From a virus (Duplodnaviria > Heunggongvirae > Uroviricota > Caudoviricetes), in IMG/VR virus record IMGVR_UViG_2526164661_000012: 40,486 bases of DNA; one strand, written 5' to 3'. A model generated the notes under the pieces. That model had not been told where the DNA came from. It was given only the letters and a program-made list of their open reading frames with translations, and made no database searches. Numbering within the stretch: the first letter of the stretch is position 1; the number at the start of each line of letters is the position of its first letter. Positions 1,143 through 27,792 of this stretch are shown one piece after another. The position numbers were made by a program, and so were the translations under genes.

Positions 1143-1631
1143 TTATCTTTCTACTTCCCAGCGTAGAGATTGCATTAACATAGCATAAATATTGAACAGG
1201 AAAGTTTTTAAAGTTAATACAAGGAACACTGCACTGCTTCCTACGAGTATATATAGTATTTGAACTCCAACAACTTTAGTGCAATGAGAAAACATTAAGG
1301 CTCTGAGTAATTTTGTAGCCAATCCATTTTCTTGCCCGAAAAGAAGGACTAAAAGATAGATAACAGACCAAAATATGAAATATATAAATACTCTCATAAA
1401 TACGCCATAAACATATTTTAAGTAACTTATCCCGTATAATGGATGCTTATACTCCATTAATGAAAGGAAAAGTTCAGGTTTATTTATGGTTGCAAATATT
1501 GTAAATCCAGTAATTAAAAAACCTAATGTTGTTGTAGTGAATCCGAATACTAAAGGTGTCCATTGTCTAATAGATGAAATTAACTCTGGTGATGAAGATA
1601 GACAAAAAGCATTAATAGATAATAATATCAC
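1143..1631 (-). CDS. Hypothetical multi-pass membrane protein (lysogeny-operon cargo)
   Basis: 162-aa ORF in AT-rich DNA; several hydrophobic segments (LVFGFTTTTLGFLITGFTIFATI, IYFIFWSVIYLLVLLF, ILYILVGSSAVFLVLTL); same strand as cI and int. Confidence 0.55.
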   Translation of the reverse strand: MILLSINAFCLSSSPELISSIRQWTPLVFGFTTTTLGFLITGFTIFATINKPELFLSLMEYKHPLYGISYLKYVYGVFMRVFIYFIFWSVIYLLVLLFGQENGLATKLLRALMFSHCTKVVGVQILYILVGSSAVFLVLTLKTFLFNIYAMLMQSLRWEVER

Positions 1632-1748
1632 TAATAATAATGTGAAATAAAAGTCAAATGAATTGACCTTTATTTTTTAGTTAATTTGTAAACATCATGC
1701 AAAGATCGCTCTTTGGTCAGATCTTCTGGGTTGAATGTATATTTCATA

Positions 1749-2213
1749 CTATAGCCACCTAGAAATTATTGATGTTAACTTGGAAAAAATTTTAGTATAA
1801 TCTTCACGTTCTGGAATAATAATATTTCCTGCATCCTTTAATTCTGTGAATGCAGAATACGCCTCTTGAGCAGCTCTTTCCAAATCAGAACTAAGTTGTG
1901 GCCTTGATGCTTTTAGAGTAAAACTATCATTATTCCCTGATAGCCTTGCTCCGTGTTCATCTTTACCACTTATAATTACTTTAGAGTTGGCCATTCGGGT
2001 TGCACTTGTTGTTTTTTGAATGACGGCCTCAGAATTTAAACCATCTTCATTTTTATTTGTGTATACTAATTGAGCTTTACTACTATTAAGTTCTTCTTTT
2101 TCTTGTTCAATTTTCCTCCAGAAGCCATCAAGAGATATATTTTCACTATTTGTTGGCAATAACTCAATTGATAATCTATTAACAACAGAAAAGAGTTCAA
2201 CAAAATTGCTCAA
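1749..2213 (-). CDS. Hypothetical protein (lysogeny-operon cargo)
   Basis: 154-aa ORF in AT-rich DNA, co-oriented with cI/int; no recognisable motif. Confidence 0.5.
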   Translation of the reverse strand: MSNFVELFSVVNRLSIELLPTNSENISLDGFWRKIEQEKEELNSSKAQLVYTNKNEDGLNSEAVIQKTTSATRMANSKVIISGKDEHGARLSGNNDSFTLKASRPQLSSDLERAAQEAYSAFTELKDAGNIIIPEREDYTKIFSKLTSIISRWL

Positions 2214-2257
2214 TGATCTTGGGTCTGTTAAGGGGGTAACCCGTAATTTGGGGGCTC

Positions 2258-2797
2258 CTAGTTTACGATAAATATCTTTTTTATACAGTCGATCAATGTA
2301 TGATTTTTTCTTTCTAATTCTTTTATTTTTTTTACTTCGTAATCCACAAAAGAATTATATCGCTGTGCAAGGCAATACTTGCTAGTATTTTCAAATTCTT
2401 CTAGGGTAGGGGCTCCAGAAACCTCTTTGCAAAGCATTAATCTGTGCTCATTAAGCATAAGAATAAAAATAGAGCTGGGGTGACTTTCTAGCGTCCTGTG
2501 ATCTCGAATTAATTGACCATCTTGAAATATTTGATCTCGTTTAAATATGGTCTTTTTTATAATGCGGCCACACAATGCAATTGTTGGAACTATAGGACCA
2601 ATAAAATCTGAATCTGTAGTATCTAACGTAATAATTTTTGTGTCAGTAAAGAAATATTCTGTATCTTTAAATTTTCTAACGTATTTTTGTGCGAAAAATG
2701 AAGGAAAAACAATGCAATCAAAAGCATCTAAGAGAACTTTGTCCTCTCCAAAATTTAAGGTATAGTTTGCAAATTCAATAGTTTTCGTAAAGCTCAT
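2258..2797 (-). CDS. Hypothetical protein (lysogeny-operon cargo)
   Basis: 179-aa ORF starting 2 nt after the stop of the repressor gene (2800), implying co-transcription; AT-rich; no recognisable motif. Confidence 0.55.
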   Translation of the reverse strand: MSFTKTIEFANYTLNFGEDKVLLDAFDCIVFPSFFAQKYVRKFKDTEYFFTDTKIITLDTTDSDFIGPIVPTIALCGRIIKKTIFKRDQIFQDGQLIRDHRTLESHPSSIFILMLNEHRLMLCKEVSGAPTLEEFENTSKYCLAQRYNSFVDYEVKKIKELERKNHTLIDCIKKIFIVN

Positions 2798-2799
2798 TG

Positions 2800-3741
2800 T
2801 TAAACCCTTTTTCTAATTATTCCTTTAACTTTATTATTAAATTCCAAATCTTCTTTATCGCATTCAAAGCTATATTTTGTGTTTTCAACGCGGATGCGAT
2901 TGTTTGGAAGTTTAAATATGTCTCTAAAAGTAAATTCTCCGTTAATAGATACTAACCATAGACCATCGCTAAGATACTCCTCTTTGCTAATGATATATGA
3001 ATCATTTGCGGAATTAACTATATAGGGATGTTTTAAATTTTGAGGTAAAATTTCGCTCGAAACGATTAATTCTCTTTGATCAGTAAGTTTGCCGTCACGT
3101 AGATCATAGCAGTCTAATGTAAGCAACCCACTTAGCTTTGTTTGATTGGAATGCCCCTTACCAAAAGATAACCACTCGAGAGACACTCCTGTTTCTAAAC
3201 AGCATTGGATGATCCAGTCTGCCGGAAAAATGTCTCGCATGTATCGTGTAGCTAATGTGCTTTTTGAGATACCAAGGTGATCGGCTAAGGCTTGGCGCGT
3301 TTTGTAACCGTAAGCCTTAACAATTCGCTCTATTGCTGCTTTACCCCCTCGAGTGAAATCCATGTGGTTTTCATTATCGAACTTTATCGTGGGGGTGTGA
3401 ACTTCATTGCAAAATTCATCTGCAGACTGTTTTTCAGCATGCCGTTCTGGCGAAGGAGCTGGCACTCCTTCTTCAGCATCTAAACCAAATGCTAACCATT
3501 CGATTGATGCGCCAGTTTCCATTGAACATATAACAACCCAATCAGCAGGGAAGGTATCGCGTGCATATCTGTTAGCCATTGTACTTTGTGAAATACCAAG
3601 GTGGTTACAGAATGCTTGGCGTGATTTGAAACCATAGGCCATGAGTATTCTCTCAATGACTTTTTGCCCTCCTCGATTCTGCATGACCATGGCTTTCAGA
3701 TGATCTTCAATATGGCGAAATGTGATTTTATTAGTTGACAT
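2800..3741 (-). CDS. cI: CI-type immunity repressor with tandemly duplicated HTH domain and S24/LexA-like C-terminal domain
   Basis: 313 aa; two homologous HTH repeats (GGQKVIERILMAYGFKSRQAFCNHLGISQSTMANRYARDTFPADWVVICSMETGASIEWLAFG vs GGKAAIERIVKAYGYKTRQALADHLGISKSTLATRYMRDIFPADWIIQCCLETGVSLEWLSFG); C-terminus aligns by eye to the LexA S24 domain (SINGEFTFRDIFKLPNNRIRVEN vs ARIDDEVTVKRLKKQGNKVELLPEN); divergent from apl/cII and co-oriented with int. Confidence 0.7.
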   Translation of the reverse strand: MSTNKITFRHIEDHLKAMVMQNRGGQKVIERILMAYGFKSRQAFCNHLGISQSTMANRYARDTFPADWVVICSMETGASIEWLAFGLDAEEGVPAPSPERHAEKQSADEFCNEVHTPTIKFDNENHMDFTRGGKAAIERIVKAYGYKTRQALADHLGISKSTLATRYMRDIFPADWIIQCCLETGVSLEWLSFGKGHSNQTKLSGLLTLDCYDLRDGKLTDQRELIVSSEILPQNLKHPYIVNSANDSYIISKEEYLSDGLWLVSINGEFTFRDIFKLPNNRIRVENTKYSFECDKEDLEFNNKVKGIIRKRV

Positions 3742-3763
3742 ATTCTTTATGCGAACCTATTCT
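3735..3763 (+). promoter_or_regulatory. Sigma70-like promoter (TTGACA-17 nt-TATTCT) reading toward apl/cII (lytic pR-like)
   Basis: Consensus -35 hexamer with 17-nt spacer and TAnnnT -10 read by eye; -35 overlaps the repressor start codon; about 60 nt upstream of the apl-like ATG. Confidence 0.4.
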
Positions 3764-5406: not shown

Positions 5407-5633
5407 TGGCTGATGCAATGGATCTCGTACAGCAGCGCGTTGAAGAAGAACGCCAGCGTCATATCCGTGCTGCCCGTGCCAAAACGCCGGGAGTGTCCCG
5501 CGTGCTTTGCGTTGAGTGTGAAGCGCCAATTCCGCCAGCACGCCGCCGTGCCATTCCGGGTGTGCAACTTTGCATTACCTGTCAGGAAATCGCAGAGCTG
5601 AAAGGCAAACATTACAACGGAGGTGCTGTATGA
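5406..5633 (+). CDS. TraR/DksA-family C4 zinc-finger protein
   Basis: 75 aa with CxxC...CxxC (CVECEAPIPPARRRAIPGVQLCITC), typical of phage TraR-like proteins (P2 orf82-like). Confidence 0.7.
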   Translation: MADAMDLVQQRVEEERQRHIRAARAKTPGVSRVLCVECEAPIPPARRRAIPGVQLCITCQEIAELKGKHYNGGAV

Positions 5634-6483
5634 GCACCATCCTGAAATGGGCGGGAAATAAAACTGCCATAATGTCCGAACTGAAAAACATCTTCCTGCT
5701 GGCCCGCGACTGGTTGAACCTTTCGCGGGTTCCTGTGCTGTGATGATGGAGACGGATTATCCCAGCTATCTGGTTGCGGATATTAATCCTGATTTAATCA
5801 ACCTCTATAAAAAGGTTGCCGCTGATTGTGAATCGTTTATATCTCGCGCCAGAGTTTTATTTGAGATCGCAAACAGGGAGGTGGCTTATTACAACATAAG
5901 GCAGGAGTTTAATTACTCAACTGAAATTACTGATTTCATGAGAGCGGTATATTTCCTGTATCTCAATCGTCACGGTTACCGTGGTTTATGTCGCTATAAC
6001 AAGAGCGGGCATTTCAACATTCCCTACGGTAATTATAAAAATCCGTATTTCCCTGAAAAAGAAATTCGCGCATTTGCAGAAAAGGCCCAGCGAGCAACGT
6101 TTATCTGCGCCAGCTTTGATGAAACGCTGGCGATGTTGAAGGCGGGGGATGTGGTGTATTGCGATCCGCCGTATGACGGTACGTTTTCCGGCTATCACAC
6201 TGATGGTTTCACTGAAGATGACCAGTATCACCTGGCATCCGTTCTTGAACATCGAGCATCTGAAGGACATCCGGTCATTGTTTCTAACAGTGACACGTCT
6301 TTGACCCGGTCTCTTTATCGTAATTTCACTCACCACTACATCAGGGCGAAACGCAGCATCGGCGTTGCAGCGGGGGAGGGAAAATTTGCAACAGAGATGA
6401 TTGCCACTAAATCTGCTAATTGGTTTAGTGCCGATTTTAGTAGGGGACGTGACTCTACTGTTATTTTCGGGGTGCAAGTGTGA
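5630..6483 (+). pseudogene. dam: DNA adenine methyltransferase (Dam-like, DPPY motif), N-terminal ~19 codons out of frame
   Basis: ORF 5740..6483 carries the DPPY catalytic motif (VYCDPPYDG) but lacks the N-terminus; ATG at 5630 (ATGA overlap with upstream stop) encodes MSTILKWAGNK... and runs to a stop at 5741..5743; adding one A to the A5 run at 5684..5688 restores ...SELKKHLPAGPRLVEPFAGSCAV..., the AdoMet-binding motif. Confidence 0.75.
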
Positions 6484-7310
6484 AAGAAATGCACCACGGA
6501 ATTCATCATTTCCATGGGACGCCTGTCTGGGGAAGTGCTGGCGACGTTCATCGTATTGCGGTGAGCGGAGCTGGTGCTTTCGTCTCCTATGTACGACCAG
6601 ATCAGATTGCGGCGTCCATTCAGCACGCCCAGGTCGTTGGCATTGATAACGGCGCATTTTCTGCATGGGTGCGTGGGCTAAAAATTAACTGGAATGATTT
6701 TTATAAATGGCTCCTGAACTATTACCACCATCCTAAGGTCGCTTTTTTTGTCATTCCTGATGTTGTGGACGGAGGTGAACGTGACAATGATGCCCTGATA
6801 AACGAAGTTCCGAAAATGTTCTACGGGAAGGCAACTCCCGTCTGGCATCTGCACGAGTCAATCGATCGGCTTATCGAGCTATGTCGTGAATGGCCTCGTG
6901 TCTGCTTTGGATCGTCTGGTGAATATGCGGCTATTAGAACTGCGCACTGGCATCGTCGTATGCAGGACGCTTTTGAAGCAATTTATTGCCGACACAATTT
7001 CAAAACAGCTGTTCATGGTTTGCGCATGCTTGACGGTCGTGTGTTGGGAAATTACCCACTGGCGACTGCCGACAGTACAAATCTTGCCTGCAATGTCCCC
7101 AAATTTAATAGCAAATATCCTGAGCTTACGCGGGCTATTCAGGAGGCTGAGTATTCGCGCAATCTGACGGAAAAGGAGCTGAAAGCTGTCATTCTGAAAA
7201 ACCGTTGCGCAATTTTAAAAGGTGCAATTGAAGCTGTTCGCCCACCTTCAGTTTCTGACTGGCTGTCGAATGGTTTGCAGCCTTCACAGCTCGAACTGGA
7301 GATTGCGTAA
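6480..7310 (+). CDS. Hypothetical protein, translationally coupled between dam and A
   Basis: 276-aa ORF; start overlaps dam stop (GTGA) and stop overlaps A start (TAATG); no motif recognised. Confidence 0.6.
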
Positions 7311-9682
7311 TGAACTACAGCTATTCCTGGAATGCTGAGAAAAAAGCAATCAATCCTTACGTAGAGACAGAAGAGCAATCTTCAGTTTCTGCGCTTTCAA
7401 ACCTGATCGCTCTGTACGCTGCCGATAACGAGCAGGAACACCTGCGCCGCGAGGTACTGAGTGATCAGGTCTGGGAGCGTTATTTCTTTAATGAATCCCG
7501 TGATCCTGTCCAGCGCGAAATGGAGCAGGATAAGCTCATTAGTCGGGCAAAGCTGGCGCATGAGCAGCAGCGTTTTAATCCAGATATGGTCATTCTGGCG
7601 GACGTCAATGCCCAGCCTTCCCATATCAGCAAGCCGCTGATGCAACGTATTGAATACTTCAGCAGCCTTGGCAGGCCAAAGGCTTATTCCCGCTATTTGC
7701 GTGAGACGATTAAGCCATGTCTGGAACGGCTGGAGCATGTGCGCGACAGTCAGCTATCCACTTCTTTTCGCTTTATGGCAAGCCATGAAGGGCTGGACGG
7801 CCTGCTGATTCTGCCTGAAATGAGTCAGGATCAGGTGAAACGCCTGTCCACCCTTGTTGCTGCGCATATGAGCATGTGCCTTGATGCAGCTTGTGGCGAT
7901 TTGTATGCCACCGATGACGTTAAGCCAGAAGAAATCCGCAAGACATGGGAAAAGGTGGCAGCAGAAACCCTGCGACTGGATGTCATACCGCCTGCGTTTG
8001 AGCAACTCCGCCGGAAAAGAAACCGCCGTAAACCCGTGCCCTATGAACTCATTCCGGGTTCGCTGGCGCGTATGTTGTGCGCCGACTGGTGGTACCGGAA
8101 ATTATGGAAGATGCGTTGCGAATGGCGGGAAGAGCAGTTGCGTGCTGTTTGCCTGGTCAGCAAAAAAGCATCTCCCTATGTCAGCTATGAAGCCGTGATG
8201 CATAAACGTGAGCAGCGCCGTAAGTCGCTGGAGTTTTTCCGTTCTCATGAACTGGTGAACGAAGACGGCGACACGCTGGACATGGAGGATGTGGTAAACG
8301 CCAGCAGCAGCAACCCTGCGCATCGCCGCAATGAGATGATGGCCTGTGTTAAAGGTCTGGAGCTTATCGCGGAAATGCGCGGTGACTGCGCCGTTTTCTA
8401 CACCATCACCTGTCCGTCACGTTTCCATTCCACGCTAAATAACGGCAGGCCCAACCCAACCTGGACAAATGCGACGGTAAGACAAAGCAGTGATTATCTG
8501 GTCGGCATGTTTGCTGCATTTCGTAAGGCGATGCACAAAGCCGGATTGCGGTGGTATGGCGTGCGGGTGGCTGAGCCGCATCATGACGGTACAGTTCACT
8601 GGCACCTGTTGTGTTTTATGCGCAAAAAAGACCGCCGCACCATCACTGCATTACTGCGTAAGTTTGCCATCCGTGAAGACCGCGAGGAGCTGGGCAATAA
8701 CACTGGGCCGCGCTTTAAGTCTGAGTTGATTAACCCGCGCAAAGGTACGCCAACAAGCTACATCGCGAAATACATCAGTAAGAACATTGACGGGCGTGGT
8801 CTGGCTGGCGAGATCAGCAAGGAAACGGGGAAATCCCTGCGTGATAATGCTGAATACGTTAATGCCTGGGCGTCTCTGCATCGTGTTCAGCAATTCCGCT
8901 TCTTTGGCATTCCGGGGCGTCAGGCTTACCGTGAACTGCGATTGCTGGCTGGTCAGGCGGCAAGGCAACAGGGGGACAAAAAAGCAGGTGCGCCGGTACT
9001 GGATAACCCGCGCCTTGATGCCATTCTGGCTGCTGCTGATGCTGGTTGTTTTGCCACCTACATCATGAAGCAGGGTGGCGTACTGGTTCCCCGCAAATAT
9101 CACCTCATCAGAACTGCTTATGAAATCAACGAAGAGCCGACCGCCTATGGCGATCACGGCATTCGTATTTATGGCATCTGGTCACCTATTGCAGAGGGCA
9201 AGATCTGCACTCATGCCGTGAAGTGGAAAATGGTTCGTAAGGCCGTTGACGTTCAGGAGGCGGCAGCCGACCAGGGCGCTTGCGCCCCTTGGACTCGTGG
9301 CAATAACTGTCCCCTTGCTGAAAATTTGAACCAACAGGAGAAAGATAAATCAGCTGATGGGGGCACTAGAACGGACATTACCCGCATGGATGACAAGGAG
9401 TTGCACGATTACCTGCACAGTATGAGCAAAAAAGAGCGCTGGGAACTGGCAGCAAGGTTACGCCTGGTTAAACCGAAACGGCGTAAAGACTACAAACAGC
9501 GAATTACAGACCATCAGCGACTGCAGCTCGTCTATGAGCTGAAGTCCAGAGGATTTGATGGTAGCGAGAAAGAGGTCGATTTACTCCTTCGCGGCGGCAG
9601 TATTCCGTCAGGAGCAGGCCTGCGTATCTTCTATCGGAACCAGCGTTTGCGGGAAGATGATAAGTGGCGGAACCTGTATTAA
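7310..9682 (+). CDS. A: Replication initiation protein gpA (rolling-circle HUH endonuclease)
   Basis: 790 aa; HUH-like motif ([11 protein letters not shown]) and tyrosine-containing motif ([12 protein letters not shown]); size and position match P2/186 A. Confidence 0.9.
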
Positions 9683-26468: not shown

Positions 26469-27147
26469 CAGGCATACTCCTCAACAATAACTATTCCCGG
26501 GGCACCGTCACCTCCCGATTGAGCCTCACTTCCAGCAGGTGCGCAGGCTCCGCCTCCGCCAGCACCAAAGCCCTCAGCTTTACCACCACCACGTCCTCTG
26601 AATGATGAAGAACTTGCACCACCTATACCGCCTGAACCTAATGGTGTATCCCCCCCGGTACCACCTGCTACAGCTTTAACAGAGATAACCATTGCTCCTG
26701 GTGTTTTTGCACTACAGCGAAATGCTCTTAGTACAGTGCCGGACGATGTCGGACTGGCACCCCATGAAATACCCTGAATATATGATGTGTTTGCAGATGC
26801 TCCCCCCGCGCCACCGCCTGTACCACCAGGTGCAGTTATCATGGAACCGAAATAAGTTGTGCCACCTTCACTACCTGAATTTCTTCCGGCTCCCCCCCTT
26901 TACCTGCAGCACCGATAATAACGTTGACTTCGAAATCATTATCAACCTCGAAAAATGCTTCAATAAATGCGCCGCTCAATCCAGCTCCGGCTGTTGCCTG
27001 CTGATTTTCTGTTGTTTCAGGAACCCCACCGCCGCCGCCGCCACCACCAGAGGCAATGACCCTTATCTTTTTTGTCCCTGGTGTTGGGATATATTTTCCA
27101 GAACTTTTAAAAATATTCGTGTTTAACAAACGACCAGAGAATCTGGC
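26468..27147 (-). pseudogene. Alternative tail-fibre C-terminal cassette (Gly-rich), split by a frameshift in a G7 run
   Basis: Track ORFs 26839..27201 and 26468..26842 are consecutive in different frames; frame at crossover site encodes GLGEA as in H; one extra G in the run (plus-strand C7 at 26892..26898) joins them. Confidence 0.5.
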
Positions 27148-27173
27148 TTCTCCCAAACCAACGTTTATGAAAA
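27148..27173. repeat. DNA-invertase crossover site (right), TTCTCCCAAACCAACGTTTATGAAAA
   Basis: Near-perfect inverted copy of the 25694..25719 site, about 55 bp upstream of the invertase start. Confidence 0.55.
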
Positions 27174-27228
27174 TGCAGAGATAACGGCTAACTGGCATCA
27201 TCCCCGGTTTTTATTCAGGGGATTGATC

Positions 27229-27792
27229 ATGCTTATTGGCTATGTACGCGTGTCAACAAATGACCAGAACACTGATTTGCAACGTAATGCACTGAACTGC
27301 GCGGGATGTGAGCGGATTTTTGAGGACAAAATCAGTGGCACTAAGTCCAACAGACCGGGGCTGAAAAAACTGCTCAGGACACTATCGGCAGGAGACACGC
27401 TGGTTGTCTGGAAGCTGGACAGGTTGGGGCGCAGTATGCGGCATCTTGTTACGTTGATAGAAGAGTTGCGCCAGCGAGGTGTGAATTTCCGAAGCCTGAC
27501 TGACAGTATTGATACCAGTACCCCAATGGGCCGTTTCTTTTTTCATGTCATGGGTGCCCTGGCTGAAATGGAACGCGAACTGATAGTTGAACGTACCAGG
27601 GCGGGGCTTGCTGCAGCTCGCGCCAAAGGCAGAGTAGGTGGACGCCGTCCTAAGTTGACTACCGAACAGTGGGCACAGATTGGACGCTTACTCGAGGCCG
27701 GAGAATCAAGACAGCGTATTGCACTGATTTTTGATGTGGGTGTTTCCACAATTTATAGAAAATTTCCGGCAAATAAGAGTAATGAATCGTAA
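27229..27792 (+). CDS. Serine DNA invertase, Hin/Gin/Pin/Cin family
   Basis: MLIGYVRVSTNDQNTDLQRN...VVWKLDRLGRSMRHL...FFHVMGALAEMERELI..., very close to recalled e14 Pin; track ORF starts at TTG 27223, ATG at 27229 preferred. Confidence 0.9.
   Translation: MLIGYVRVSTNDQNTDLQRNALNCAGCERIFEDKISGTKSNRPGLKKLLRTLSAGDTLVVWKLDRLGRSMRHLVTLIEELRQRGVNFRSLTDSIDTSTPMGRFFFHVMGALAEMERELIVERTRAGLAAARAKGRVGGRRPKLTTEQWAQIGRLLEAGESRQRIALIFDVGVSTIYRKFPANKSNES

Follow-up and report, generated by a model that had tools for sequence, protein, structure and literature searches.

The window analyzed here, a stretch of 40,486 nucleotides (nt) from IMG/VR record IMGVR_UViG_2526164661_000012, holds a P2-like (Peduoviridae) prophage of Escherichia coli spanning approximately positions 1-37,400, with the host genes ybjL and ybjM at its right. 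An open reading frame (ORF) on the plus strand at 6480..7310, called dpdA in the following, encodes a protein that very probably belongs to the phage DpdA family of DNA guanine/7-deazaguanine transglycosylases. With a probability of roughly 0.7 we propose that this protein installs a host-derived 7-deazaguanine in the phage DNA. Family membership, fold, the conserved catalytic set, the lack of precursor genes and the cassette-like distribution were derived in the analysis; that DNA is the substrate, which base is inserted, how much is modified and what the phage gains are points that we infer. The family assignment as such is already known, as orthologues were identified as DpdA in the literature of 2019-2021. 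Supplementary Data 1 of Hutinet et al. (2019) lists SEN1 YP_009217891 as DpdA, together with 7-11, SE131, SPN3UB and BTP1, and in the paper on phage MED16 the viral homologues closest to MED16 DpdA were given as SEN1 gp38 and SW9 gp39. A previous sequence-only reading of the same DNA had left the protein unassigned, which applies to its database annotation only, since SEN1 gp38 (75% identity) is found in the list of Hutinet et al. (2019). We are mainly dealing with an annotation gap: the family is large and has neither a Pfam nor an NCBIfam model, and because no curated model exists the gene is unannotated and appears as "hypothetical" in RefSeq.

Using the PHROGs profiles, residues 2-275 were assigned to phrog_887, "queuine tRNA-ribosyltransferase", with an E-value of 2.1e-96. 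Database searches with a cutoff of E<=1e-3 yielded 4297 clusters of homologues (90% identity); among the matches listed, all were unnamed and without a Pfam domain. A representative library added 556 clusters (50% identity), mostly proteins of ~240-250 amino acids (aa) covering residues 10-207. With 4297 and 556 matching clusters, ORF 6480-7310 clearly exceeds what would be expected of a chance reading frame. A megablast comparison of the gene with the phage collection gave no match, and a protein-level search was required. The translated search of phage genomes identified the P2-like Salmonella phages SI22 and SEN1 (75% identity), Pantoea phage MED16 (55%, annotated "putative queuine tRNA-ribosyltransferase") and Salmonella phage 7-11 (34%), all over nearly the full length. 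Matches to BTP1, SPN3UB, SfI and many Vibrio phages (36-41%) covered residues 10-206 only. Between the prophage and the entire MED16 genome, the DpdA ORF was the only protein-level similarity at E<=1e-3. For 7-11 (locus L013, HM997019), the homology to DpdA at 10809-11537 (minus strand, locus coordinates) began ~70 nt 5' of the annotated start (30787-31491 in the record) and overlapped the neighboring coding sequence; the N-terminus of 7-11 DpdA is probably annotated too short.

The DpdA of phage 9g, for which activity was demonstrated experimentally, was reached by profile comparison. A profile of 63 diverse homologues with 26-59% identity (alignment A3) was aligned by hhalign with 9g DpdA over 153 columns (probability 98.3%, E-value 1.4e-14), and the motifs IDNGAFSAW, VHGLRML and TADSTN were paired with LDSGAFSAY, VHGFGIT and SCDSSS, respectively. 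When 9g DpdA was compared to the whole window by tblastn, the best, weak match fell exactly on ORF 6480-7310. Scans of the protein against Pfam (including PF01702), NCBIfam and PADLOC, the latter a library of known and candidate defense systems, gave nothing meaningful. PDB sequences gave nothing with the single sequence or with two family profiles, and the coiled-coil matches obtained were noise. No significant match to the single E. coli Tgt sequence was obtained with hhalign (probabilities of 0.1% for profile A1 and 1.3% for A3). The MED16 paper reported an HHpred value of 99.2% for MED16 DpdA versus the tRNA-guanine transglycosylase (TGT) of T. maritima, which was not reproduced in the present analysis. 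The validated 9g DpdA (locus L005, 3007-3960, minus strand) also lacked a Pfam TGT match by hmmscan; curated domain libraries miss phage DpdA in general, beyond the singleton clade considered below. The link to the canonical TGTs rests on the fold, the motifs and the bridge provided by 9g DpdA.

The AlphaFold model (pLDDT 89.5, pTM 0.86) showed an eight-stranded beta/alpha barrel with helices from ~residue 208 onward. A TIM barrel of the TGT superfamily (residues ~10-207) is followed by a clade-specific helical C-terminal extension (208-276), and the nearest structural neighbors of this (beta/alpha)8 fold were of the TGT type. A Foldseek search with the predicted structure, proposed in the sequence-only reading, was informative for viral predicted structures, with 32 matches at E<=1e-3, mostly phage "queuine tRNA-ribosyltransferase" proteins. 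Against the PDB it returned only generic TIM barrels at E>1e-3, which were not used as evidence. Active sites of TIM barrels are located at the C-terminal ends of the strands. The only invariant columns of A3 were D56, D94, H123, H179, D198 and S199, and each of these residues lies at or just past the C-terminal end of a strand in the model. The order and spacing of D56/D94/H123/Gly-rich FGSSG/H179/D198 agree with the experimentally characterized residue sets of bacterial DpdA and of Cap10. For bacterial DpdA these are D95, D130, H181, G206-G207, L236 and D256, with the exchanges D95A and D256A abolishing activity (PMC10164549). The Cap10 set comprises D73, D122, K154, H226 and D248, of which H226 and D248 were described as a pair.

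The three active-site aspartates D56, D94 and D198 are invariant in the 63 homologues, and D56 and D198 are aligned with 9g motifs. Asp56 (codon 6645..6647, this and the following codons on the plus strand; motif IDNGAFSAW) at the C-terminal end of strand 52-56 is predicted to be the general acid/base and base-contacting aspartate, equivalent to D72 of 9g, D95 of bacterial DpdA and D89 of E. coli Tgt (LTDSGGFQ). Asp198 (7071..7073; motif TADSTN), invariant together with S199 and located at the end of strand 196-199, is the predicted catalytic nucleophile, corresponding to the aspartate of CDSSS in 9g, D256 of bacterial DpdA, D264 of E. coli Tgt (MFDCV) and D248 of Cap10. For Asp94 (6759..6761; motif VIPDV), located just after strand 87-91, the equivalence was deduced from residue order and spacing; in this region the hhalign alignment with 9g is ambiguous by 3 residues. 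Judged by spacing, His123 (6846..6848; motif PVWHLHES) at strand 121-123 is predicted to be the base-binding histidine equivalent to H181 of bacterial DpdA. His179 (7014..7016; motif HGLRML), aligned to H196 of 9g, is probably the hydrogen-bond partner of the nucleophile, like H226 in Cap10. A conserved histidine at this position (9g H196) marks the DpdA1 type and is missing from DpdA2 (PMC6884629). Because H179 matches it, the protein is assigned by sequence to the DpdA1 type.

The name given by PHROG and GenBank, "queuine tRNA-ribosyltransferase", would make the protein a phage tRNA-guanine transglycosylase acting on host or phage tRNA. The zinc site bears directly on this reading. The motif CxCxxC...H was sought in alignments A1 and A3, and no conserved Cys cluster was found there. 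It is also missing from the validated 9g DpdA and from Cap10; a structural zinc site defines TGT and bacterial DpdA, not phage DpdA. In QTRT1 the Zn-binding subdomain contributes to nucleic-acid binding. The name, moreover, was inherited from remote homology, a sequence-level match to E. coli Tgt is lacking, the closest experimentally linked relatives (9g DpdA, MED16 and 7-11) modify DNA, and the host already encodes its own Tgt. A tRNA substrate is therefore regarded as very unlikely, and DNA modification as the preferred function. The sequence-only reading had suspected a role in DNA modification or replication. Modification is favored by the homology to DpdA, and nothing points to a direct role in replication.

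Genes for a precursor pathway were sought in the window. Using tblastn with FolE, QueD, Gat-QueC and QueE of 9g (QueF was not among the queries), the best E-value for the whole window was 0.95, and among the unassigned accessory ORFs, scanned with Pfam, PHROG and PADLOC, no FolE, QueD, QueE, QueC or amidotransferase was revealed. Because no homologue of the preQ0 pathway was found in the window, the prophage is a DpdA-only element and any deazaguanine must be host-derived. The protein falls into the "singleton" clade of gamma-proteobacterial phages without 7-deazaguanine synthesis genes. Singleton DpdAs were reported to cluster separately, with one such cluster in gamma-proteobacterial phages, and reliance on host preQ0 was suggested (Hutinet et al., 2019; PMC6884629). 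The preQ0 pool of E. coli suffices for a phage DpdA without its own pathway, and 9g DpdA alone inserts dPreQ0 into plasmid DNA in E. coli (PMC6884629).

Partner genes of two related defense systems were considered as well. For the Dpd partners DpdB (ATPase) and DpdC, no PADLOC model matched the protein or its unassigned neighbors, and no Cap9/QueC-like gene or CD-NTase was found in the window (best E-value of 4.8 for 9g Gat-QueC in tblastn; no PADLOC match). A Cap10-like or Dpd-like defense role was rejected, as no partner genes are present in the window. In the former case, a TGT-like enzyme working like Cap10 of type IV CBASS would handle protein-attached 7-deazaguanine in prophage defense or counter-defense. 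Besides the missing partners, the gene is located in the early replication operon, outside the variable accessory-gene slots of the prophage, and the sequence profiles tie the protein to phage DpdA, so that we consider this function extremely improbable.

The distribution of dpdA was analyzed in complete E. coli genomes. At >=95% nucleotide identity the gene was found in 103 of 5426 genomes, in which it always bears the label "hypothetical protein" and is flanked by "DNA adenine methylase" and "replication endonuclease". The flanking junction of dam and the replication gene occurs in 1240 genomes. In an evenly spaced sample of 60 of these, the slot was occupied by dpdA (5), by a gene with a PAPS-reductase domain (2) or by IS1 (1), and nothing was present in ~50. 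About 92% of related E. coli prophages lack dpdA. The comparison of presence and absence across related prophages, which the sequence-only reading had recommended, revealed a cassette-like pattern. Its view that small early genes usually fill this slot did not hold, since in close relatives the slot is usually empty or carries a PAPS-reductase-like gene. When prophages with an empty slot (L011) or with the PAPS-reductase gene (L006) were compared to the window by blastn, similarity ended at ~6404/6438 and resumed at 7385; therefore the exchanged segment includes the end of dam and the start of the replication gene. The exchangeable cassette at approximately 6405..7385 (plus strand) begins ~45-80 nt before the end of dam, includes dpdA and extends ~75 nt into the replication gene. 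Overall, dpdA is an optional cassette in a recombination-exchangeable slot beside dam. The occupant of the same slot in L006 (NZ_CP157327, 6478-7488) encodes a 336-aa protein with a PAPS-reductase domain (PF01507, PHROG 424). One distant homologue of dpdA was found in the replication module of a lytic phage, a module in which preQ0 genes were absent; two others lie on contigs too short to reveal their neighboring genes.

For two relatives the modification itself has been measured by others. The DNA of 7-11 contains 50 dADG per 10^6 nt, which is ~0.02% of G (PMC6884629). In MED16 DNA, 354 dADG per 10^6 nt (~0.13% of G) and only a trace of dPreQ0 were detected, and little protection was observed from the restriction enzymes tested. 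These low values, together with the absence of the gene from most related prophages, are compatible with a protein that has the DpdA fold and is silent or vestigial, or that is only a DNA glycosylase or base-binding protein, carried as a passenger cassette without a modification phenotype. Mycobacterium phage Orion has a singleton DpdA and yet unmodified DNA (PMC6884629), and the frameshifted dam and an IS66 element, both described below, indicate that the present copy may be decaying. However, the reading frame of dpdA is undisturbed, and none of the five residues predicted to act in catalysis or base binding varies among homologues down to 26% identity, which argues for selection on catalysis. 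PreQ0 is made by E. coli, as is well established. The unmodified DNA of Orion was explained by a host without preQ0 synthesis, and the activity of 9g DpdA alone in E. coli also speaks against a silent enzyme (PMC6884629). On balance a protein that installs no modified base is rather unlikely, and an active DNA transglycosylase remains the preferred interpretation.

The following mechanism is proposed for this active transglycosylase. As suggested by its position and overlapping codons, dpdA would be part of the early lytic transcript, its translation being coupled to that of the replication endonuclease. A guanine would be flipped out of the duplex phage DNA, and its Watson-Crick edge would be read by Asp94 and His123. 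By analogy to TGT and bacterial DpdA, Asp198, positioned by His179 as in Cap10, would attack C1' of the flipped-out deoxyguanosine, and Asp56 would protonate the leaving guanine. The covalent intermediate would then be resolved by a 7-deazaguanine base from the queuosine pathway of the host; E. coli synthesizes preQ0 via FolE-QueD-QueE-QueC. The expected product is dPreQ0 and/or dADG at low density. If the levels match those of 7-11 and MED16, roughly 4-25 modified sites per genome of ~37 kb would result, the 18,824 G positions of the ~37.4-kb prophage giving about 4-24 modified bases. The benefit would likely be the escape from particular restriction or defense systems on entry into a new host.

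A further possibility, which we put forward with considerable reserve, is that the singleton clade differs functionally from the preQ0-inserting DpdA1 enzymes and that its members, acting alone with host metabolites, form 7-amido-7-deazaguanine (dADG) at a handful of defined sites (about 4-25). Some limited support for such a reading comes from the two measured relatives, 7-11 and MED16, in which the modified base was dADG, at 0.02-0.13% of G, instead of dPreQ0, and from the DpdA ORF being the sole protein-level similarity to MED16. We know of no DpdC-like enzyme in 7-11 or MED16. If the prophage makes dADG, the amide would have to come from the specificity of DpdA itself or from host chemistry, and the modification would represent a site-specific epigenetic mark rather than a bulk anti-restriction armor. 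For the more general proposal of a host-dependent transglycosylase, the implication would be that temperate P2-like E. coli prophages can carry a 7-deazaguanine DNA transglycosylase which depends on the queuosine pathway of the host. An inducible E. coli prophage would offer a convenient genetic system for a singleton DpdA, addressing the base inserted, the sites and the protection.

The dpdA ORF extends from GTG at 6480 to TAA at 7308-7310 and has 276 codons. The GTG start shares nucleotides with the TGA that ends the upstream methyltransferase ORF (GTGA, 6480-6483), and the TAA stop overlaps the ATG of the gene for the 790-aa replication endonuclease (TAATG, 7308-7312), in agreement with the overlap at both ends described in the sequence-only reading. 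An alternative in-frame ATG at 6489, which is the RefSeq start for a 99%-identical gene, would yield 273 aa, leave a gap of 5 nt after the dam stop and thereby remove the upstream overlap. A GGGG run 8-11 nt 5' of GTG 6480 favors GTG as the tentative start. Under either start codon the gene is tightly packed, with intergenic distances of <=5 nt. A terminator-like hairpin at 6438-6460, just 5' of the dpdA start, was discarded, as the region holds just as many such sites as expected by chance.

The rightward early operon on the plus strand comprises cII-, fil-, DUF5347-, DUF2732- and TraR-like genes, dam, dpdA and the replication endonuclease gene, with names taken from the RefSeq annotation of a near-identical prophage. 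The integrase (4-1131) and the CI repressor (2803-3741) are encoded on the minus strand. A consensus scan placed a candidate early lytic promoter (TTGACA-17-TATTCT, 3735..3763, plus strand) at the head of the operon. We are aware that promoter-like sites were rarer than in shuffled sequences, so that this site is a positional guess and not evidence. Downstream of dpdA, the P2 gpA-like protein of 790 aa (7310..9682, plus strand) is a "replication endonuclease" in all matching RefSeq records.

Upstream, dam encodes a D12-class N6-adenine methyltransferase (5630..6483, plus strand, ATG at 5630; PHROG 56 "DNA methyltransferase", E-value of 1e-92 for 5740-6480). The ORF at 5740-6483, previously taken for the entire dam, is indeed a methyltransferase ORF, but represents only the downstream part of a frameshifted gene starting at 5630. 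Relative to the intact dam of NZ_AP031375 (855 nt), which has A6, the A run at 5684-5688 is shorter by one nucleotide (A5). What remains is an N-terminal fragment of 37 codons plus the 247-codon ORF; the 1-nt deletion could be a homopolymer sequencing error or reflect a real pseudogene. Functional coupling of the protein to dam, as once suggested, is not conserved. Because SEN1 has dpdA directly upstream of its replication gene with no dam there, dam is a neighbor and not an obligate partner of dpdA. The idea of an obligate Dam partner was also rejected in view of the frameshift in the present dam and of the unrelated methyltransferase of MED16. On one metagenomic contig of 36.6 kb, a 421-aa fusion of Dam (PF02086) and DpdA was observed (P0011), with residues 193-421 being 99% identical to residues 48-276 of the present protein. 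It probably arose when the end of dam was lost along with the first two barrel strands of DpdA, through either deletion or misassembly.

Several other features of the prophage were recorded. An IS66-family element (~27819-30246, minus strand) was found between the tail-fiber region and the tail sheath genes, with a tnpA-like gene (29812-30246), TnpB_IS66 (29465-29812) and two ORFs (28298-29431 and 27822-28370) of a split transposase, all on the minus strand; partial degradation of the prophage is possible. A serine invertase of the Hin/Cin type (Resolvase and HTH_7 domains, 27223-27789, plus strand) adjoins oppositely oriented small ORFs (26471-27201, minus strand) downstream of the tail-fiber gene, one of which has a glycine-rich domain. 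This region looks like an invertible tail-fiber switch of host range. Between the replication/DinI region and the portal gene, accessory ORFs are located at 10538-11065 (minus) and 11783-12862 (plus), neither with a PADLOC match; one of the two encodes 176 aa (PHROG 37247, unknown function) and the other 360 aa with a weak match to M48 peptidases. Because an AIPR family protein is found at the position equivalent to 10538-12862 in a related prophage, this interval is another variable slot. Three ORFs of 162, 154 and 179 aa in the interval between integrase and CI (1146-2797, minus strand) had no Pfam or PADLOC match and one weak PHROG match, and related prophages carry different genes at this position.

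The protein was compared to known systems. Cap10 of type IV CBASS (PDB 9NTN) works with Cap9 and a CD-NTase, whose genes were not found here, and its substrate is a deazaguanylated protein N-terminus. With the TGTs (bacterial TGT, ArcTGT, QTRT1/2; PF01702) the present protein shares fold and catalytic logic, and TDSGGFQ, IFDEC and MFDCV of E. coli Tgt correspond to IDNGAFS, IPDVV and TADSTN. In contrast to these enzymes it has neither the zinc subdomain nor the N-terminal lid and is ~100 residues shorter. The bacterial DpdA known from the Dpd restriction-modification system of Salmonella Montevideo (PDB 7UI4) has 413 aa, a structural Zn site and specific insertions, and requires the DpdB ATPase, with DpdC leading to dADG (PMC10164549). 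In the prophage the gene stands in a phage early operon, and DpdB and DpdC were not found in the window.

DpdA1 of the Queuovirinae (9g, CAjan) is linked to the present protein by profile homology and by shared motifs including H196, the counterpart of H179, and the zinc motif is absent from both; however, identity is only ~18-20%. In 9g and CAjan the full preQ0 pathway lies beside dpdA and 25-30% of G is replaced, whereas pathway genes are absent from the singleton clade, in which the measured relatives reach <=0.13% of G, as dADG. The singleton DpdAs ("group 3" of Hutinet et al.: SEN1, 7-11, SE131, SPN3UB and BTP1; also MED16) represent the same family as the protein described here, without genes for preQ0 or G+ synthesis. 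Within this group, the proteins of the BTP1, SfI and SPN3UB type align over residues 10-206 only and lack the C-terminal helical extension. SEN1 is likewise a P2-like phage, and the gene for its gp38, which is 75% identical, also lies immediately upstream of the replication gene. What distinguishes the present copy from that of SEN1 is its location in a prophage of E. coli, behind a dam gene missing from SEN1, and its "hypothetical" annotation.
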